Shown: positions 45,806 through 53,134, counted from the first letter of the stretch. The stretch: 64,000 bases of DNA from Actinomycetota bacterium (GCA_963169225.1 CAUJDH010000088.1:22718-86717), one strand, 5' to 3'. A program made the numbers and translations. The notes: a model not told the origin generated them from the sequence alone.

Positions 45806-46237
45806 TTAGAAGACTCCTGGCACCACCTCCTCCGAGAGCTCGGCATAGGCCTGCTCTTGTGCATCCAGATACGTTTGCCACGCTTCTGGATTCCAGATCT
45901 CGAGCGTTGCGTGGTTACCAACAACCACACACTCCTTTTCAAGTCCGGCATACTCGCGCAGTTGAGTGGGAATCCCGATGCGTCCCTGCTTATCAGGGAA
46001 TTCGCTCGAGGCTCCCGAGAACAGTACGCGCGAGTAAGCCCTAGCGTTCTTGTCGGTCCGAGAGGCTTCTCGAACGCGACTTGCATACTGTTCAAACTCA
46101 GAAGTTGGCCACACGATGACAGAACGATCCTGCCCCTTCGTGAGTACAACTCCTCCCGCCAATTCATCACGGAACTTAGAAGGGAGCACCATACGTCCTT
46201 TGAGATCCATCTTCGGTTGATGAGTTCCTAAGAACAT
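45806..46237 (-). CDS. mraZ: Transcriptional regulator MraZ
   Basis: This is a 143 aa ORF after trimming to ATG 46237 (MFLGTHQPKMDLKGRMVLPSKFR), which is preceded by GGGAGGTG. It has a duplicated SpoVT/AbrB-like layout. Confidence 0.95.
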   Translation of the reverse strand: MFLGTHQPKMDLKGRMVLPSKFRDELAGGVVLTKGQDRSVIVWPTSEFEQYASRVREASRTDKNARAYSRVLFSGASSEFPDKQGRIGIPTQLREYAGLEKECVVVGNHATLEIWNPEAWQTYLDAQEQAYAELSEEVVPGVF

Positions 46238-46355
46238 GTGCTTCACCTCCCTTACCCGTGTCCAGATGACATTCCTTGTCGTCCGCCGCGTTTTCGGCCG
46301 ACCGTTCAAGGTGCTCGGTATATGTCACCTAGTTTTAAGTGTTGCACAGGATTCC

Positions 46356-46382
46356 CCACTTTGCACCACTCTCCTCCACTTT
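46356..46382 (-). promoter_or_regulatory. Three direct heptamer boxes (AAAGTGG / AGAGTGG / AAAGTGG) at exact 10-bp phasing: probable MraZ operator
   Basis: The plus strand has ccacttt at 46356, ccactct at 46366 and ccacttt at 46376. The boxes lie 119-145 nt upstream of the mraZ ATG. They match the published MraZ direct-repeat logic (AAAGTG[G/T] boxes or GTGGG repeats with a 10-bp period). Confidence 0.65.
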
Positions 46383-46634
46383 CGACGTCAAATTAGGGAA
46401 ACTTGAGGATTTTTTGGTTATTAAGTGGGTTTTTTCGAGATTCTGGGCGAAAAAATATGACAAATCGGACACCAATGCCAAGAGGTCACCGAAGGCTTGT
46501 TATGGGCTTGAATATCTGAAGGGCCATACTCCCCCAAGTTGGGCAAGCCGGACCTAGTGCTAATCCAAGTGCTGGAGTAATATCGACTTGCACCGATTAC
46601 TTGAGCTTGATTCGAAGCCCAGTTATCAGCGTTT

Positions 46635-46708
46635 GCCCTCGTAACCCAATTGGCAGAGGTAGGCGACTCAAAATCGTCCCAGTGTGAGTTCGAGTCTCAC
46701 CGAGGGCA
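46635..46708 (+). tRNA. 74-nt class-I cloverleaf tRNA with anticodon CAA (nominally tRNA-Leu), discriminator A, no encoded CCA
   Basis: The acceptor stem is GCCCTCG/CGAGGGC, a perfect 7 bp. The D arm is ACC(C)-AATTGGCAG-(A)GGT with G18G19. The anticodon arm is GGCGA-CTCAAAA-TCGTC, with anticodon CAA at 46669-46671. The variable loop is CCAGT, only 5 nt. The T arm is GTGAG-TTCGAGT-CTCAC. Confidence 0.85.
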
Positions 46709-46713
46709 CACAT

Positions 46714-48135
46714 TCAACGGCGTACTTTGATTGCACTCGTGGCTGGCTTGCTGTAGCCCACGGAATTGTACGCCTGTACTCGTACTCGATAGTTCACGTA
46801 CTTAGAGGCAACTTCACCGCGTACGCTTCTCTTGCAATGCGAGTTCTTCAAAAGGAACGAGCGAGAGAGATTGATCTTATGAGTGCTCTTTCCTACCTTC
46901 TTGGAATAGAAATTCTTTGAACACCCTTTGACATTGACCCGAACCCGATAGCCATTGACTGGCCTTGTAGTTGTGCTCTTGGCAGCAGTCCAACGAACAA
47001 CAAACTTGCGAGCCGTCGACTTACCTGTGGTCTTCACCTTCTTGGGTGCAGTCGGCACTTTTTTGTTTGATGGCGGCGGGGTTGGCGGATACTTGAACTC
47101 CACCCATAGCGATCCAAAGTCTTCTGATACGTCAGCTACTCTGCGGGTGAGAGCTACCGTCGAACCGCTTGTGGCATAGGTAATTGAGGGAAGCTGTGCA
47201 ACTGCGGTATCTGCGCCTGAACCACCATCGTCAATAAAACCACTCGGTTCAGGGTTGGGACGCGTTCCACCGACATCCAACGTCCCTGCCGAAGTCGCAC
47301 CATAACCGGCACCAACTCCGACGCCGGTGTCAGTCGTACTTGCCGCCTTCACCACTCCACCGGTAATCGACACAGTCCCACCACCTGCATCGGCGCCGCC
47401 CCCAATACCAGCACCGCCGTTATCACCAGTTGCGTTAACTGTGCCGCCAGAAATTGAAACCTCGGTACTACCTCCACTCGAAGTCTCTCCCCAACCGGAA
47501 CCGATACCGGCGCTACCCCAGCCACCAATTGCGTTCACTGTGCCACCAGTAATTGTCACCAGTCCAGCTTCAGCGCCGTTGCTGCCACCGATGCCAGCTC
47601 CATAGTCGCCACCAGTTGCATTGACGGTACCTCCAGTGATCGTGATCTTACTGCCACCAGCACCTCCGTCACCACCGCCAATCGCCGGGAACTCACTGCC
47701 TCCGATGACCGTGATGGCACCATTCTTAATAGTGATATGGCCGTTTCTCCAGCTCGAGCCACCAATCCCGGCCTGGTAGTCGGATACATCGTCAATAAGG
47801 AGTGAACCGTTGTGAGCAGAACTCTTGTCGTCGATAGTAAGACTGTCACCTGGCTCAACGCCAATACCTGAGGGAACCTGAAGGTTTTGGCCGTTGAGAT
47901 CGATCGTTACCGCGTCGCCGTTTCTGGAATCCAGACGGTCATCGATGGTATAGCCAGCGGTGACTCGGATCGTGTCGCCATCAGCCGCAGTTGAGTCCCA
48001 ACAGGTTTCAAACTGAGTTGGGTTATTCGCATTACATATGGATGCGGCCTGTGCGGGCGTACCCGCTAGGACTCCGGCGACCAAGGCCAACGATGCACTG
48101 GCACCAACAATTCCGCGGACTCGAAGACTCGACAT
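46714..48135 (-). CDS. Secreted Gly-rich beta-helix-like repeat protein with basic C-terminal FN3-like domain
   Basis: The ORF has a signal peptide MSSLRVRGIVGASASLALVAGVLAGTPAQA|AS; I chose start ATG 48135 after GGAAGG, while the track start is 48159. It has five or six repeats of type (I/V)TI(T/S)GGTVNA(T/I)GG..GAGIGG and a PPTPPPS linker. The Lys/Arg-rich C-terminus (RKFVVRWTAA...VNGYRVRV...YRVRVQAYNSVGYS) is FN3-like. I saw no LPXTG motif. Confidence 0.8.
   Translation of the reverse strand: MSSLRVRGIVGASASLALVAGVLAGTPAQAASICNANNPTQFETCWDSTAADGDTIRVTAGYTIDDRLDSRNGDAVTIDLNGQNLQVPSGIGVEPGDSLTIDDKSSAHNGSLLIDDVSDYQAGIGGSSWRNGHITIKNGAITVIGGSEFPAIGGGDGGAGGSKITITGGTVNATGGDYGAGIGGSNGAEAGLVTITGGTVNAIGGWGSAGIGSGWGETSSGGSTEVSISGGTVNATGDNGGAGIGGGADAGGGTVSITGGVVKAASTTDTGVGVGAGYGATSAGTLDVGGTRPNPEPSGFIDDGGSGADTAVAQLPSITYATSGSTVALTRRVADVSEDFGSLWVEFKYPPTPPPSNKKVPTAPKKVKTTGKSTARKFVVRWTAAKSTTTRPVNGYRVRVNVKGCSKNFYSKKVGKSTHKINLSRSFLLKNSHCKRSVRGEVASKYVNYRVRVQAYNSVGYSKPATSAIKVRR
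47275..47811 (-). repeat. In-frame degenerate coding repeats (about 22-30 aa period) of the Gly-rich protein
   Basis: The protein-level repeats are HITIKNGAITVIGGSEFPAIGGG, KITITGGTVNATGGDYGAGIGGS, LVTITGGTVNAIGGWGSAGIGSG, EVSISGGTVNATGDNGGAGIGGG and TVSITGGVVKAAS...GVGVGAG. Confidence 0.7.
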
Positions 48136-48278
48136 GTTCATCCTTCCGACTGACAGCATGCGTCACTCACTGCAAGAAGCAAAGGTCAGCAAGTACAACC
48201 TGACCATCGGAGACTCTAGGTCTTTGCCATAGCGCAAGACAACACGAGAAAATGTTTAGCCGCCGATTAGGGAAAGAA

Positions 48279-48304
48279 TGAACCAGATGGTTCACAACCG
48301 TTGT
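48279..48304. promoter_or_regulatory. Two abutting perfect palindromes (TGAACCA-ga-TGGTTCA and ACAAC-c-GTTGT) upstream of the Gly-repeat protein gene
   Basis: 48279-48294 is a 7-2-7 inverted repeat whose loop is too short for an RNA hairpin, which makes it operator-like. 48294-48304 is a 5-1-5 palindrome. Both lie about 145-170 nt upstream of start 48135 and downstream of the nirK stop. Confidence 0.3.
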
Positions 48305-48380
48305 CTTTACCGGCAGAGACTCGTAGGGAACGCAAGAGAGACTGAGAGCCTCTCCGTCAGCGTCCGCAAAGAGACCCGCA

Positions 48381-51035
48381 CTATTCGCTTGCGTGCAAGA
48401 TTCCGTGAGCACCTTTCTCGGCGTCAGACATTATGTGGGTCACGAACGGATAGTTGCCAGCCTCAGGAATCTTCAGTTCGACATAGCCTCCTTGTGCCGG
48501 CTGCATGGCCATTGCTTGAGCACCGCCTGAACCCTTGCCATCCAACAAAAAGGCACCCTCAAACCACACTCGATCAAACTGTCCACCGACCACATGGAAA
48601 GAACTCGGACGGTTGGGGCCAGCATCCAGTACCCAGAAACGTACGCGATCTCCAACCTTGGCTTGCAATGGACGGAAGTCGTACTGCATGGGGAAACCAT
48701 TGAAAGTAACTAGACTCGGTTGACCTGCCAAAACCTTTGCAGCGTCTGCCGTGCCACCTTGTGATCCCAAGTAAACCTCAGATTGAACTAGCACAAACTC
48801 CCGGTCGACTTTGGGGAGATCGGGCGGATCAATGATCACTGCTCCAAACATTCCATTGGCGATGTGAACTGACATAGGCATAGTCGAGCAGTGGTACATC
48901 CAGATGCCAGCACGATTTGCGGTGAACGTGTAGGTAAGACTCTCACCCGGTGGAATAGTGCGCATCGGCTTGTCCGGCGCCAAGGCTCCGGCATGGAAGT
49001 CGATCGAATGACCGATCGTGCCATCGTTCACCAGCGTCACAATGAACTTGTCACCGACTTTTCCACGCAGAGTTGGCCCTGGCACCTCACCGCCAAAAGT
49101 CCAACGCATCTGCCGAATCCCTGGTGCGACCTCCTGTTCGGTTTCACTCACCTTCAGTCGAACTCGATGTACCTTCTCTTTGGTTGTTGCGGGCAGAACA
49201 GCGCTACGCGCTTTGAAATCAGCCCCAGGATCGTTCATGATCCTTTGAAGCGCTTGTGAATCGAGGTCTACAGAATCAGACCCACCCTCAGACTTATCAC
49301 TCCCATGTACATGTTGGTCATGGGCGGAACTTGAGTGGCCGACATTTGCAGAGGTAAGGTCAGGGTTCGCGTTCGGACCTGTGGCAACAATGCGCAACAC
49401 CATACCCATTTGTCGATGGCCTGCGACAGAGCACCAGCCATCCATGTCCCGACCAACAACTCCAACGTCGATAGTGGCCGATTCACCAGGCTTTAACTTG
49501 CCAGTGGTCTGACCGGATTCGAGAACCAAGTCATGAACATCGTCACCCGTATTCTCCAAATTAATGATCAAGTTGTTTCCGGCTGGAACCTGGATCTCAT
49601 CGGGAGTAAACCGCATTCCTTGAATCTTCAAGTTTGCGGTAGTCGTCTGGCCAGTGGGAGCAACACCAGCAGAAATGCTCACATTAGAGCCCGTACCCAA
49701 ACCCAGTGCGGCAGGATCGACTGCACCGCCGACGGCAACAGCAAGGATCACCACCGATAGTCCAACAATCACCGAGCCTCCCAGATGAGCCGGAGACTTG
49801 ACCTCCGCCCTCGTACCTCGACTGGAGGCTGCCGACTCTGCTTGCACCGACTCTGGTGGCTTACCCATCGCCCTAATCAACAGCGGCAGCGTCCACGCTA
49901 GCGATACCAGGACCACTACCGAAGCGACGACTCGAATTACGCTCGGCACAGGGAGTACACAGACCACCAGCGCACCATTAGCTGCTACGACTCGAGCTAC
50001 TCCACCCCGATTTGTAACCCGATGGCGCCATCGCATGGCTGCTGGCCCTCCCCCGGTCATGGTCGGCAACAAGAAGCTCAGTGAACCCAGGAGCACCTGA
50101 ACAACACATCCAACGATTACTGCCGCGCTCAACGATCCAGCACTCTCTGCGACAGCAACCCAATCCGAGGATGTTGCCACAATTGCACCAAGAGCAAGGA
50201 TGCCAATTCCCATCCAGATGACAGAAGCGAGAACGGTCAAGGTGGCAAAGTCCACTGGCGGCCTTTTGATCATTGCTCGAACAAAAGGACCTGCTAGTAC
50301 CGCGAGACCCGCGAAGTACAAAACCAACCCCAAGACAACCAGTACTTGAATACCCACGATGAAGCCGGCGGTAGTCAATACCGAACCCGCGATAAGCAGC
50401 GGCAGTGCCCCGATTCCAGCTCGTTGGGCCTGGTCATCAATCAGAGTGCGCAAAATCGTCGGCCAAAAGGTGATTAGCGTCCCCAAAATGGCAAGTCCGA
50501 TCCAACCTAGAAGAGCTCCCACAGCATGCGCGAGAATGACTTGTTCGTGACTCAAAGGTCCATGACCTTGGGACAGTTGAACGCCAAGTACGACCACACC
50601 AACGAACAAGATTCCAGCCGCCGCGTAGTAGTAGACCGACACGAAGAACCTAGACACGAGCGCTTTGCGCATGCGCACCAACATCGATACCACGTGCCAA
50701 ACGACGGCAGTAACCAGCAAAAGCGCACCAGCTATCACTGCAGCCGAGAACTGCGCGACGACACCAACAATGACTGCAATGACACCGAAATTCAAGAGAA
50801 CCAGTCGTGCTACACGGGTCCTGACCGGTGTGTCAGGAAGCCGCAAAAGTGAGGTGGCAAAATGATCGCTCCAGATCAGGATTGCGTTGGTTGCAGCTCC
50901 TAGCAGCATCAAGTGAACCAAGAGCCAATGAGAACTGGGGAGATTTCGATGAAAAATGCTGACCAATACAGTTGCTGCCATCCAGAAAATAACGATTGCA
51001 CCCATTCGGCGATGCCAAGTTGCACGACTAATCAT
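48381..51035 (-). CDS. nirK: Membrane-anchored three-module copper nitrite reductase: polytopic His-bearing membrane domain + cupredoxin + NirK core
   Basis: The ORF is 884 aa. Residues 1-440 have about a dozen hydrophobic segments. Residues ~465-552 form a cupredoxin with candidate T1Cu ligands H501 (DDVHDL) and C535/H540/M545 (WCSVAGHRQMGM). A His-rich linker GHSSSAHDQHVHGSD follows. Residues ~620-884 form a NirK core with GHSIDFHAG (T1 His, catalytic Asp, T2 His), YHCSTMPMSVHIANGM (T2 His, T1 Cys, His, Met), SFHVVGGQ (catalytic His) and FVTHIMSDAEKGA (T2 His). Confidence 0.88.
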   Translation of the reverse strand: MISRATWHRRMGAIVIFWMAATVLVSIFHRNLPSSHWLLVHLMLLGAATNAILIWSDHFATSLLRLPDTPVRTRVARLVLLNFGVIAVIVGVVAQFSAAVIAGALLLVTAVVWHVVSMLVRMRKALVSRFFVSVYYYAAAGILFVGVVVLGVQLSQGHGPLSHEQVILAHAVGALLGWIGLAILGTLITFWPTILRTLIDDQAQRAGIGALPLLIAGSVLTTAGFIVGIQVLVVLGLVLYFAGLAVLAGPFVRAMIKRPPVDFATLTVLASVIWMGIGILALGAIVATSSDWVAVAESAGSLSAAVIVGCVVQVLLGSLSFLLPTMTGGGPAAMRWRHRVTNRGGVARVVAANGALVVCVLPVPSVIRVVASVVVLVSLAWTLPLLIRAMGKPPESVQAESAASSRGTRAEVKSPAHLGGSVIVGLSVVILAVAVGGAVDPAALGLGTGSNVSISAGVAPTGQTTTANLKIQGMRFTPDEIQVPAGNNLIINLENTGDDVHDLVLESGQTTGKLKPGESATIDVGVVGRDMDGWCSVAGHRQMGMVLRIVATGPNANPDLTSANVGHSSSAHDQHVHGSDKSEGGSDSVDLDSQALQRIMNDPGADFKARSAVLPATTKEKVHRVRLKVSETEQEVAPGIRQMRWTFGGEVPGPTLRGKVGDKFIVTLVNDGTIGHSIDFHAGALAPDKPMRTIPPGESLTYTFTANRAGIWMYHCSTMPMSVHIANGMFGAVIIDPPDLPKVDREFVLVQSEVYLGSQGGTADAAKVLAGQPSLVTFNGFPMQYDFRPLQAKVGDRVRFWVLDAGPNRPSSFHVVGGQFDRVWFEGAFLLDGKGSGGAQAMAMQPAQGGYVELKIPEAGNYPFVTHIMSDAEKGAHGILHASE

Positions 51036-52278
51036 GACTTCCCCTCTCAGTCTGACTTTCGCGATCTGGATCCTTTCCTACAAGTGGCAACAGCGTTGGA
51101 GCACCGACCGACCCAGTGGGCACCACCGAATCTCGCTCATACTTACTATGCGACCGCAGACCATCGGCCTGGGCCCCAAGCACCACTGACCCCACTGCCA
51201 CAACCAGGAAAAGCATCATGGCGAAGACATTCGTTGCACCGCCAACCTGCCAAGCCCACGTGATTGATCTGAGATCTCCAACAAATACCCGAAGAATCAA
51301 TGACGCTTGCAAAATGATCAATGGGATCCACATAACTGCTCGATACGGCAATGGCCTACCCAAAACCGCGGGCAAGATGATCGGCGCATGTCCGAGCACC
51401 ATAGACAAAGCAAAGCCAATAAACACGGCATGAATCGTGAGGTCGTAGAGTCCTGCCGAACTGTCGGGGTCAATCGCAACCCACATGACACCGGCGAAGG
51501 CAAGCCAGATGTACCCACTGAGCAAACAAGCGGCCGTATATCGTGGCAGCCCCGAACTCCTAATGGTCTTCATTGCAATGTCGTACCGCAAAAGCCAACC
51601 CACTAACGCTAGTAGCGAACACCCGAAGATCACCAATCCCACCGTGTGCCACAAAAGCGAACCTGCAGCACCGACGGCCGTCGCAACCGCAAAGCTGAGT
51701 GCCCACGATTCTGCCCGCGGCGACCCAATATTCAACCGCGCCAGGTCAAGACGTTCACCAACGATGGTCAAGACTATGAAGCCACAGAGCCACGGCACTA
51801 TGAGTTCCGTGGCTGTTCCCCCAAGCCACAAGCATGCAGCACCCACAGCAAGCACTGCACCAAGAATTTGGACACTAAGTGCGGTATTGGGAACGCGCTT
51901 CCAAGCCAGTCGATAACACTCGACTAGGCCCAAGCTTCCAATTAGCTGAAGCGCCTCCCCTACTTGTTGCGGTAAGTCCGTCAACAGCAAGATGGCACCC
52001 AGACCAAATCCGACAGGTGCGATAAAGGCCCATGGTTTTCGCACCGCAACCGCGCGTTCCAGCGAAATAAGCGTGCCAAGGAATCCAAATACCATCAGTT
52101 GGGCATGTAGGAGTTCAAGATTGTTGCCAACAAGCGGCGCTTCGAACCCAAGCAAGATAAGGCCGAAGTTCATGCCCACTATCAGACTGATTCCCCCTAA
52201 AACCAAGAGCGCATATCGAACACCCATAACTCGACTACGTTGGGATCCCACTGTTGAGCGCTGCGCCTGTTGGTTCAT
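51028..52278 (-). CDS. Polytopic membrane protein, NnrS-like (tentative), paralogous-looking to the NirK N-terminal domain
   Basis: This 416 aa ORF has about 12 hydrophobic segments. LLHAQLMVFGFLGTLI resembles the NnrS HAHEMLFGF block, which I recall from memory. There is a second His block, TIHAVFIGFALSMVLGHAPIILPAVLGRPL. Its stop overlaps the nirK start by 8 nt. Confidence 0.55.
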   Translation of the reverse strand: MNQQAQRSTVGSQRSRVMGVRYALLVLGGISLIVGMNFGLILLGFEAPLVGNNLELLHAQLMVFGFLGTLISLERAVAVRKPWAFIAPVGFGLGAILLLTDLPQQVGEALQLIGSLGLVECYRLAWKRVPNTALSVQILGAVLAVGAACLWLGGTATELIVPWLCGFIVLTIVGERLDLARLNIGSPRAESWALSFAVATAVGAAGSLLWHTVGLVIFGCSLLALVGWLLRYDIAMKTIRSSGLPRYTAACLLSGYIWLAFAGVMWVAIDPDSSAGLYDLTIHAVFIGFALSMVLGHAPIILPAVLGRPLPYRAVMWIPLIILQASLILRVFVGDLRSITWAWQVGGATNVFAMMLFLVVAVGSVVLGAQADGLRSHSKYERDSVVPTGSVGAPTLLPLVGKDPDRESQTERGSHD

Positions 52279-52318
52279 GCTGTCCTCTCAGTCCTTATGA
52301 GGTGATCCCACTGTTGAC

Positions 52319-52996
52319 TTACATAACGAGCCGACAAGCTCCCGGTTCCGAAAATGGATGCAATTCGGCGGAATCTGTTTCAGCGCCGAAAGACTCCATG
52401 ACGCCCTGGACCAACCCGAGGTGTGCCGCACACACCACTTCGGGGTATTTGCGAGCGACATCAAGAAGTGGACAGCGGGTAAGAGCAGCCGATGTGCTCC
52501 GACTGTTTGCTTGAGGAGCAAATCCCAAGTGATCCAGAATTTCTACCACCCGCTTACGCGCTTGGCTTTTTTTCGTAGAACCGCGACGCGCCACCATGTC
52601 TTTACCCCATGCACGGCCCGCCTCAATAGCCTCAGCTCGGGGATCTTTTGAATTTGTCGCCATATAGGAAGCCAGTGCTCCGGCAAGACCAGCAAATTCC
52701 CTAACTCGCGGGTCATGTTCAGTCTGCAAATCAGATGCCTTGAACTGCCATGACGGTCTACCTCGACCGATCGGCGTCGACCGCACCCGATCTACCAGGC
52801 CAAGGTCAACGAGTGCATCTAAATGTTCTCGCACCGTGTTGTGGTGAAGTCCGGTCTGCGCAGCGATACTGGCAGCAGTTTCGCTCGACTGAGAAGCTTG
52901 CAACACTTCTAAGATTCGAGCTCGTGGCATCGAGATCGACCGAGGTGCCAGTCGGACAGGCCCAGGGCCCAGAGGTATGTCCTGATTATTTTTCAC
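52319..52996 (-). CDS. ArsR/SufR-like winged-helix regulator with C-terminal Cys/His motif
   Basis: The HTH region is RARILEVLQASQSSETAASIAAQTGLHHNTVREHLDALVDLGLVDR. The C-terminus is TRCPLLDVARKYPEVVCAAHLGLVQG...HPFSEPGACRL. I chose start GTG 52996, exactly 7 nt after a TACGGT -10, which would make the transcript leaderless. Alternative starts are ATG 52930 and the track start at 53065. Confidence 0.75.
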   Translation of the reverse strand: MKNNQDIPLGPGPVRLAPRSISMPRARILEVLQASQSSETAASIAAQTGLHHNTVREHLDALVDLGLVDRVRSTPIGRGRPSWQFKASDLQTEHDPRVREFAGLAGALASYMATNSKDPRAEAIEAGRAWGKDMVARRGSTKKSQARKRVVEILDHLGFAPQANSRSTSAALTRCPLLDVARKYPEVVCAAHLGLVQGVMESFGAETDSAELHPFSEPGACRLVM

Positions 52997-53003
52997 GGAG
53001 TTA

Positions 53004-53032
53004 ACCGTATAAAACCAATGCAAGGTAGTCAA
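53004..53032 (-). promoter_or_regulatory. Candidate promoter TTGACT-17 nt-TACGGT for the regulator/NnrS-like/nirK operon
   Basis: In minus sense the -35 TTGACT is at 53032-53027 and the -10 TACGGT (TAnnnT) is at 53009-53004. GTG 52996 begins 7 nt downstream. Confidence 0.35.
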
Positions 53033-53134
53033 CAAGCGCCCTACTGTTTCACCGACCAAAGACAATCAATGGATCGGTACAACCGGCTCAAGACCTGTGT
53101 TGTATGGCGTCAATCGCTAATAAGACCCAGCCAT

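Follow-up and report, generated by a model that had tools for sequence, protein, structure and literature searches.

A type I tRNA-Leu(CAA) gene with a five-nucleotide variable loop upstream of mraZ in an uncultured actinobacterium

The single tRNA gene found in a 64-kb stretch of actinobacterial DNA (the whole of which is called the window here) belongs, with high confidence, to the chromosome of an uncultured Nanopelagicales-related actinobacterium and encodes a functional type I tRNA-Leu(CAA), charged by LeuRS and decoding UUG as leucine. It is of a kind already documented, an ordinary actinobacterial type I tRNA-Leu(CAA) that gives no sign of recoding. Direct support comes from the gene itself, its fold, its homology, a leucine-type D-arm, purifying selection, and the alignment of UUG with leucine; charging by LeuRS and expression we infer.

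Results

A class I cloverleaf with a leucine anticodon

ARAGORN, proposed as a check by the original prediction that drew attention to this gene, called one tRNA in the window, a tRNA-Leu(caa) at 46635-46709(+). The Rfam family RF00005 covers 46635-46708(+) over its full length (51.1 bits, gathering score 29, E = 5e-8), a score that seems modest to us for a tRNA. The clean 74-nt class I cloverleaf described from sequence in that prediction, with its 7-bp acceptor stem and G18G19, was borne out by ARAGORN, Rfam, and the sequence, and the TTCGAGT T-loop, the CU-CAA-AA anticodon loop, A73, and the 5-nt CCAGT variable region were all correctly read (sequence and Rfam alignment). The features are collected in Table 1.

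No conserved tRNA position is disrupted (U8, A14, G18G19, U33, G53-C61, and UUCGA), both U8:A14 and A15:U48 are present, and CCA is not encoded. One detail had gone undescribed before: the D-stem consists of three Watson-Crick pairs (A10-U25, C11-G24, and C12-G23) plus a C13.A22 mismatch, itself a tRNA-Leu trait, with A10-U25 in place of the usual G10-C25. In the anticodon loop, A36-A37-A38 forms a known MiaA (i6A37) context.

The minimum free energy fold of the single, unconstrained sequence differs from the cloverleaf; the sequence nonetheless folds better than its shuffles (z = –2.8). The cloverleaf is settled despite this fold because comparative data support it. Across an alignment of 14 family members, 98.6% of cells were paired and 17 of 20 pairs showed compensatory double changes, while 0 of 500 shuffles did as well and slid registers came nowhere near.

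Table 1. Positions of the tRNA gene, its parts, and the features on either side, counted from the first nucleotide of the window
Feature	Position	Strand	Evidence
mraZ, 143 aa, first dcw gene, divergent from the tRNA	45806..46237	-	Pfam PF02381, gene call
mraZ promoter-like site, TTGGCA-16-CATATT	46481-46454	-	Promoter scan
21-nt block GCTGGAGTAATATCGACTTGC, invariant between window and sister species amid diverged intergenic DNA	46571..46591	+	Alignment with the sister species (A2)
Type I tRNA-Leu(CAA) gene, class I, 74 nt	46635..46708	+	ARAGORN, Rfam, covariation, sister-species identity
Acceptor stem GCCCUCG/CGAGGGC, 7/7 pairs perfect	46635-46641 with 46701-46707	+	Sequence and Rfam alignment
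U8 and A9	46642-46643	+	
D-arm, loop AAUUGGCAG with G18G19	46644-46660	+	Sequence and Rfam alignment
Anticodon arm, stem GGCGA/UCGUC	46662-46678	+	
Anticodon CAA, reads UUG; loop C32-U33-C34-A35-A36-A37-A38	46669..46671	+	ARAGORN, Rfam
Variable loop CCAGU, exactly 5 nt, extra arm absent	46679-46683	+	Rfam alignment, ARAGORN
T-arm GUGAG-UUCGAGU-CUCAC	46684-46700	+	
Discriminator A73	46708	+	
Beta-helix/fn3 protein gene	46714..48159	-	Pfam; gene end 5 nt from the tRNA 3′ end

UUG codons align with leucine

UUG makes up 66 of the 288 leucine codons (23%) in seven dcw genes of the window, and is thus too frequent to go without a dedicated reader. Its meaning was assessed from tblastn alignments to 80 homologous loci of other bacteria, RsmH-based loci among them and the self-identical contigs L081-L085 left out. 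Leucine occupied 46% of the cells opposite UUG, the highest value among the six leucine codons (range 30% to 46%), and I, V, F, and M were distributed opposite UUG as they were opposite the other leucine codons. At the well-conserved UUG sites, where at least 60% of the homologues agree on one residue, that residue was leucine in 16 of 16 cases. Judged from these alignments, UUG means leucine, with no sign of reassignment. The proposal that the tRNA might miscode or recode UUG is contradicted, because UUG sites align with leucine just as other leucine codons do. A class II tRNA-Leu(CAA), or a UAA tRNA that reads UUG, may be present elsewhere in the genome.

Homologues in Actinomycetota and in phages

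The exact 74-mer is absent from GTDB species representatives, and a blastn search of PLSDB gave only four hits, all from Actinomycetota. ARAGORN identified the Tsukamurella tyrosinosolvens hit (83.8% over 74/74 nt) as a class I tRNA-Leu(CAA), and those from Arthrobacter (77%) and Nocardia farcinica (77.6%) as class I tRNA-Leu(UAA); the remaining hit lies on a Mycobacterium riyadhense plasmid (82.9%) and has an anticodon loop of 8 nt. A probable mycobacterial host contig (L202) carries another type I copy. The homologue search suggested at the outset thus turned up relatives in Tsukamurella, Arthrobacter, Nocardia, this mycobacterial contig, and many phages.

The M. riyadhense copy (Mriy_45176_p1, NZ_OY970457.1 184478-184552; L093:5001-5078) is tRNA-Leu-like, of type I, and 83% identical to the window tRNA. 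It resides on a 472-kb linear plasmid with an integrase ~3 kb off, and an extra A in its anticodon loop (UUCAAAAA, 8 nt) leads ARAGORN to report an anticodon of four bases, ‘caaa’. Either a decaying copy or a tRNA resembling a +1 frameshift suppressor would fit.

In GenBank phages, the annotated features under the matches listed are all tRNA-Leu, from the best match to the weakest. The best single blastn match overall is the tRNA-Leu(UAG) of Lactobacillus phage LpeD, at 84.7%. According to ARAGORN, the phage homologues are class I tRNAs of 73–78 nt with the anticodons UAG, UAA, CAA, CAG, and GAG, and the hosts of the phages so confirmed are Lactobacillus, Rhodococcus, Streptomyces, Acinetobacter, Mycobacterium, and E. 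coli. Members of the 14-sequence alignment have in common the D-arm GUAGCCCAAUUGGCAGAGGC, a variable loop NCAGU, and the T-arm GUGAGUUCGAGUCUCAC, with U8 and A14 invariant in 14/14.

Escherichia phage vB_EcoM_LMP34 (L229:194-270) encodes a 77-nt class I tRNA-Leu(UAG) of the same family, and a 77-nt tRNA-Leu(UAG) of this family recurs in many Felixounavirus genomes from E. coli, Salmonella, Shigella, and Citrobacter. Set against these enterobacterial phage copies is the finding that EcLeuRS did not charge the type I tRNA-Leu of S. coelicolor in vitro (PMC6614811).

One broader reading of this distribution, which we rate as rather unlikely, is that the short-arm tRNA-Leu body is one horizontally mobile family, shared by phages of diverse hosts and by Actinomycetota chromosomes, its hosts comprising Lactobacillus, Acinetobacter, Pseudomonas, E. 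coli/Salmonella, and Actinomycetota. Were it true, Actinomycetota, including the Nanopelagicales-related lineage, would have captured a phage-type tRNA-Leu for UUG or UUA, and many bacterial LeuRS enzymes would accept type I tRNA in vivo, against the generalisation drawn from the EcLeuRS failure. The literature that we searched held no description of the spread of the type I body across phages and actinobacteria.

Genomic context of the tRNA gene

The best named relatives of the window MraZ are Candidatus Nanopelagicales MAGs (64–73% identity), and RsmH finds its best hits in Actinomycetes (Tessaracoccus, Microbacterium, and Demequinaceae among them); the window accordingly belongs to the class Actinomycetes of Actinomycetota. 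A spacer of 397 nt separates mraZ from the tRNA on its upstream side. Motifs GTGGG and CTGGG at ~46425-46447, after the mraZ promoter-like site, seem to resemble MraZ-box repeats. Beyond the beta-helix/fn3 gene lies that of an 884-aa multicopper oxidase, followed by a 416-aa ORF that matches nothing in Pfam and by the gene of an ArsR-type HTH protein. Core genes follow from 53.1 kb, 6.4 kb downstream of the tRNA (nusB, efp, an M24 peptidase gene (pepQ), aroQ, aroB, aroK, and aroC), and the block runs on through a prepilin peptidase gene, aroE, mltG, and alaS. AT skew reaches 0.276 at 50001-52000, over the 416-aa ORF and the 5′ part of the oxidase gene, and does not exceed 0.12 in absolute value elsewhere. 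None of the window ORFs scanned against Pfam was identified as a LeuRS gene.

A sister lineage (MraZ 96% identical; L099-L101) has the tRNA at the same locus. The beta-helix/fn3 gene is absent there and the tRNA abuts the multicopper oxidase gene (L099:1-2172); no other gene at the site is demonstrably variable. Against the Nanopelagicales MAGs (L102-L105), synteny is broken across 46238-53100, and maoC, patatin, DUF3040, and dinB genes stand upstream of mraZ in those genomes. Two Logan contigs of the window's own species (L083 and L085) stop at the tRNA or close to it, pointing to variation between strains or to broken assemblies at this spot.

The original prediction placed the tRNA exactly at the border between the conserved dcw cluster and an accessory segment, and offered an island-borne tRNA as one explanation. 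A border of sorts is real, given the break in synteny with the Nanopelagicales MAGs and the absence of the adjoining gene from the sister lineage, but nothing recognisable as a mobile island lies behind it. Pfam found no integrase, recombinase, or mobile-element family in the 20 ORFs between 41.8 and 64 kb; the 25-nt 3′ end of the tRNA has no repeat in the window at up to 3 mismatches, a span beyond which an island of >17 kb would reach; and GC stays at 0.52–0.57 across the window (0.523–0.544 over 46–54 kb) with no shift. With no mobile family, no 3′-end repeat, and no GC deviation, the “accessory segment” comes to at most four genes, or ~6.4 kb, and the island-borne option is left unsupported, core genes returning so soon. 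The tRNA marks a rearrangement point.

A cell-wall-specific role for the tRNA, suggested by proximity to dcw genes and by analogy with the non-proteinogenic tRNAs of the Fem type, was considered and found unsupported, the adjacency not being kept beyond the sister species.

Type I tRNA-Leu genes as phage attachment sites elsewhere

In T. tyrosinosolvens (NZ_LR134447.1; L092:5001-10074), an integrase and prophage genes start 16 nt 3′ of the homologous tRNA. Mycobacterium phage Wanda contains a 29-nt match to the tRNA 3′ end (L228:2001-2029), ~90 nt from its tyrosine integrase gene, as a putative attP. Omegavirus mycobacteriophages such as Wanda, Optimus, and LittleE carry this 29-nt copy, the integrase distance being that measured in Wanda, and IMG/VR also contains a provirus contig and a 3′-fragment of a type I tRNA-Leu. 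In Mycobacteriales, type I tRNA-Leu(CAA) genes serve as phage integration sites. A further locus considered here is L230:10421-10465.

These data bear on the alternative that the window gene is a supplementary tRNA, recently acquired from a phage or genomic island and lying at the edge of an inserted segment, and not the housekeeping reader of UUG. It would account for the phage origin of the closest match (LpeD), for the great abundance of type I tRNA-Leu in phages and the use of such genes as attachment sites in Actinomycetota, and for the synteny break and the beta-helix gene missing from the sister species. However, chromosomal actinobacterial homologues are equally close (83.8%), the identical tRNA occupies the same locus in the sister species, and a codon as frequent as UUG needs its own reader; the 20 neighbouring ORFs without a mobile-element family, the unrepeated 3′ end, the flat GC of 52–57%, and the return of core genes at 53.1 kb also speak against it. 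We consider a recent acquisition of this kind very unlikely, and regard a resident chromosomal tRNA-Leu(CAA) as the better explanation.

Conservation, selection, and expression signals

Several Logan metagenome contigs that encode the exact RsmH protein carry the same tRNA. Between the window and the sister lineage the tRNA is identical at 74/74 positions, whereas mraZ is 88.9% identical (72% at third codon positions), rsmH 82.9% (60% at third codon positions), and the 100 nt beyond the tRNA 59%; the mraZ-tRNA spacer, 397 nt in the window and 328 nt in the sister lineage, aligns with 252 matches. Because the tRNA is unchanged where flanks and third codon positions retain only 59–72%, the gene is under purifying selection.

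At greater distance the tRNA is missing from this site. It occurs in 0 of the 10 RsmH-based related loci scanned (identity at most 58%), in none of the three loci at 62% identity from an MraZ-based metagenome scan, and not upstream of mraZ in the Nanopelagicales MAG loci (71–73% MraZ identity). Conservation of the locus is therefore demonstrated for the sister species only.

The invariant block upstream of the tRNA includes TAATAT, a –10-like hexamer of the TANNNT type, at 46578-46583, ~50 nt from the gene, and is a possible candidate for the tRNA promoter. A consensus scan of the + strand at the tRNA called no strong sigma-70-type promoter and no intrinsic terminator, and left the TAATAT block uncalled. 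Along with the seemingly modest Rfam score and the unencoded CCA, this is what a non-expressed pseudogene or tRNA-like remnant might look like; but such a remnant would hardly have kept every base in the sister species amid surroundings at 59–72%, with all conserved tRNA positions intact and the TAATAT block preserved upstream, and we judge it extremely improbable.

Leucine identity of the tRNA body

In alignment with E. coli tRNAs, the window D-arm is of the leucine type: its stem has 3 bp, positions 13 and 22 are mismatched, and its loop, AAUUGGYAG, places G18G19. The D-arms of leuX (GCGA-AAUCGGUAG-ACGC) and leuW (GCGA-AAUUGGUAG-ACGC) likewise have a 3-bp stem, the 13.22 mismatch, and the same placement of G18G19, while the Met-type D-arm of metU (GCUC-AGUUGGUUA-GAGC) differs from that of the window tRNA. 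Identity over shared positions falls from leuX (64%) through leuW (58%) and metU (51%) to glnV (38%).

The D-arm signature CCCAATTGGCAGAGG, followed by GTTCGA at class I distance and with the anticodon left free, was then used to scan IMG/VR and gave at least 120 loci. Among the matches listed, 121 of 122 signature tRNAs have leucine anticodons (tag 42, taa 35, caa 34, gag 5, aag 3, and cag 2). The type I body thus goes with leucine irrespective of its anticodon. Bacterial LeuRS does not read the anticodon, so a leucine body combined with varied leucine anticodons is as expected.

On viral contigs, class I tRNA-Leu genes that have the D-arm CCCAAUUGGCAGAGG abound (at least 120 loci in IMG/VR). 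The sole exception to the leucine anticodons is in IMGVR_UViG_3300023284_002263 (L173, minus strand, ~1020-1067), where the anticodon arm of a leucine-type body is abnormal (GCUGA-GUAGCUC-UCAGU) and position 37 holds a pyrimidine; ARAGORN reads the tRNA as Ala(agc). Damage to a tRNA-Leu(UAG) could explain it, or the tRNA may mis-decode.

It is likewise barely credible that the gene is an anticodon mutant of a non-leucine body, of the Met or Ile2 type, which has kept its other identity and would mistranslate or recode UUG. The class I architecture fits such an origin, as does the stem-loop GGCGA-CUCAAAA-UCGUC, which presumably resembles that of E. coli tRNA-Ile2 (GGCGACUCAUAAUCGC), and a human Met-derived tRNA with a CAA anticodon provides a precedent (tRNAscan-SE 2.0 preprint). 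However, the D-arm is of the leucine and not the Met type, leuX is closer than metU, five other anticodons, each a leucine one, occur on the same body within the family, and UUG sites are leucine with no excess of Met or Ile over other leucine codons. The specific case of a U36A mutant of Ile2(CAU) or Met was set aside in view of the D-arm comparison and the leucine-only range of anticodons.

Discussion

The kind of tRNA to which the window gene belongs has been characterized in Streptomyces coelicolor, where tRNA-Leu comprises four class II species and a single type I species, tRNA-Leu(CAA), encoded by SCOt09 (Fan, Huang, Ji & Wang 2019, NAR 47:6369, PMC6614811). Its variable loop has 5 nt, A44C45A46G47C48, and the single LeuRS, ScoLeuRS, leucylates it with a kcat/Km of 6.25 s–1 μM–1, against 14.2 s–1 μM–1 for the type II UAA species (PMC6614811). 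[quoted passage not shown] Attempts to delete the gene failed, so it is apparently essential, and the authors point to 6706 genomic UUG codons (PMC6614811). The CAA tRNA-Leu gene is single in each of six Streptomyces genomes (PMC4932002).

The original prediction considered a class I CAA tRNA anomalous in bacteria, save if such tRNAs proved to be ordinary and LeuRS-charged across the lineage. Because type I tRNA-Leu(CAA) is documented and LeuRS-charged in Streptomyces (PMC6614811), with homologues elsewhere in Actinomycetota and in phages, the premise is outdated. The tRNA reviews that we looked at do not mention the case, which may explain the verdict. Its first option, a leucine tRNA that lost its extra arm, was the right one, in light of the precedent, the homologues, and the leucine-type D-arm.

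By analogy with S. coelicolor (PMC6614811), the transcript would be processed and CCA added post-transcriptionally, and the organism's single LeuRS would then leucylate the tRNA through U8:A14 and a core geometry that includes the 5-nt variable loop. Bacterial LeuRS does not read the anticodon and, in Actinomycetota, does not read the long arm either. The window tRNA keeps the leucine-specific core (U8:A14, A15:U48, the 3-bp D-stem with its 13.22 mismatch, AAUUGGYAG, and A73), a 5-nt loop replacing the long arm, and once charged it would decode the frequent UUG codons as leucine.

The finding has little consequence for genetic-code biology. In Actinomycetota and phages, the combination of class I architecture and a leucine anticodon does not on its own point to recoding, and scans should not treat it as if it did. 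With the window gene, the documented occurrence of type I tRNA-Leu(CAA), so far in Streptomyces, reaches an uncultured lineage of aquatic actinobacteria. The new element lies outside the window gene: the same body is widespread in phage tRNA arrays, including those of phages with non-actinobacterial hosts, and is apparently under-described. This phage type I tRNA-Leu body might serve as an annotation marker, and its spread raises the question of LeuRS specificity in non-actinobacterial hosts.

Compared with the S. coelicolor type I tRNA, the window tRNA comes from the same phylum, Actinomycetota, and shares the CAA anticodon, a 5-nt NCAGY variable loop (ACAGC there, CCAGU here), U8:A14, G18G19, U54:A58, and A73; both have frequent UUG codons to serve. 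The two differ in origin, S. coelicolor representing the Streptomyces order with its higher G+C and the window a Nanopelagicales-related aquatic lineage at ~54% GC, and it is for S. coelicolor alone that charging, LeuRS LSD compatibility, and essentiality are known. Homology to SCOt09 is indirect, running via Tsukamurella and a Streptomyces phage.

Closer in sequence are the type I tRNAs of other Actinomycetota (Tsukamurella CAA, Arthrobacter sp. StoSoilB13 and Nocardia farcinica UAA, and the L202 contig), which are 77–84% identical over their full length and have the same D-arm and T-arm; Tsukamurella also shares the variable loop CCAGU. The window tRNA departs from these copies in having A10-U25 for G10-C25 and in its anticodon stem, which differs by compensatory changes, and no integrase adjoins the window gene, unlike the Tsukamurella copy, where a phage occupies the attachment site.

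The class I tRNA-Leu genes of phages (Lactobacillus Herelleviridae, Mycobacterium cluster C, Streptomyces, Rhodococcus, Acinetobacter, and Pseudomonas phages, and Felixounavirus) have the same body and D-arm signature, are up to 84.7% identical, and carry leucine anticodons only. They are placed in tRNA arrays, often encode CCA, and mostly have UAG or UAA anticodons, whereas the window gene is chromosomal, solitary, and kept in the sister species. E. coli leuX, a class II CAA tRNA, shares the D-arm architecture AAAUYGGUAGA, the 13.22 mismatch, A73, and the T-loop with the window tRNA, and U33 to A38 of its anticodon loop, UUCAAAA, are common to both; it differs by an 8-nt insertion at the variable region relative to type I tRNAs. 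Finally, the human class I CAA gene scores as Met (98.4 vs. 2.6 bits) and is six nucleotides away from a tRNA-Met (tRNAscan-SE 2.0 preprint). Class I architecture and the CAA anticodon are common to it and the window tRNA, but the body of the latter is of the leucine type and belongs to a family with leucine anticodons only.
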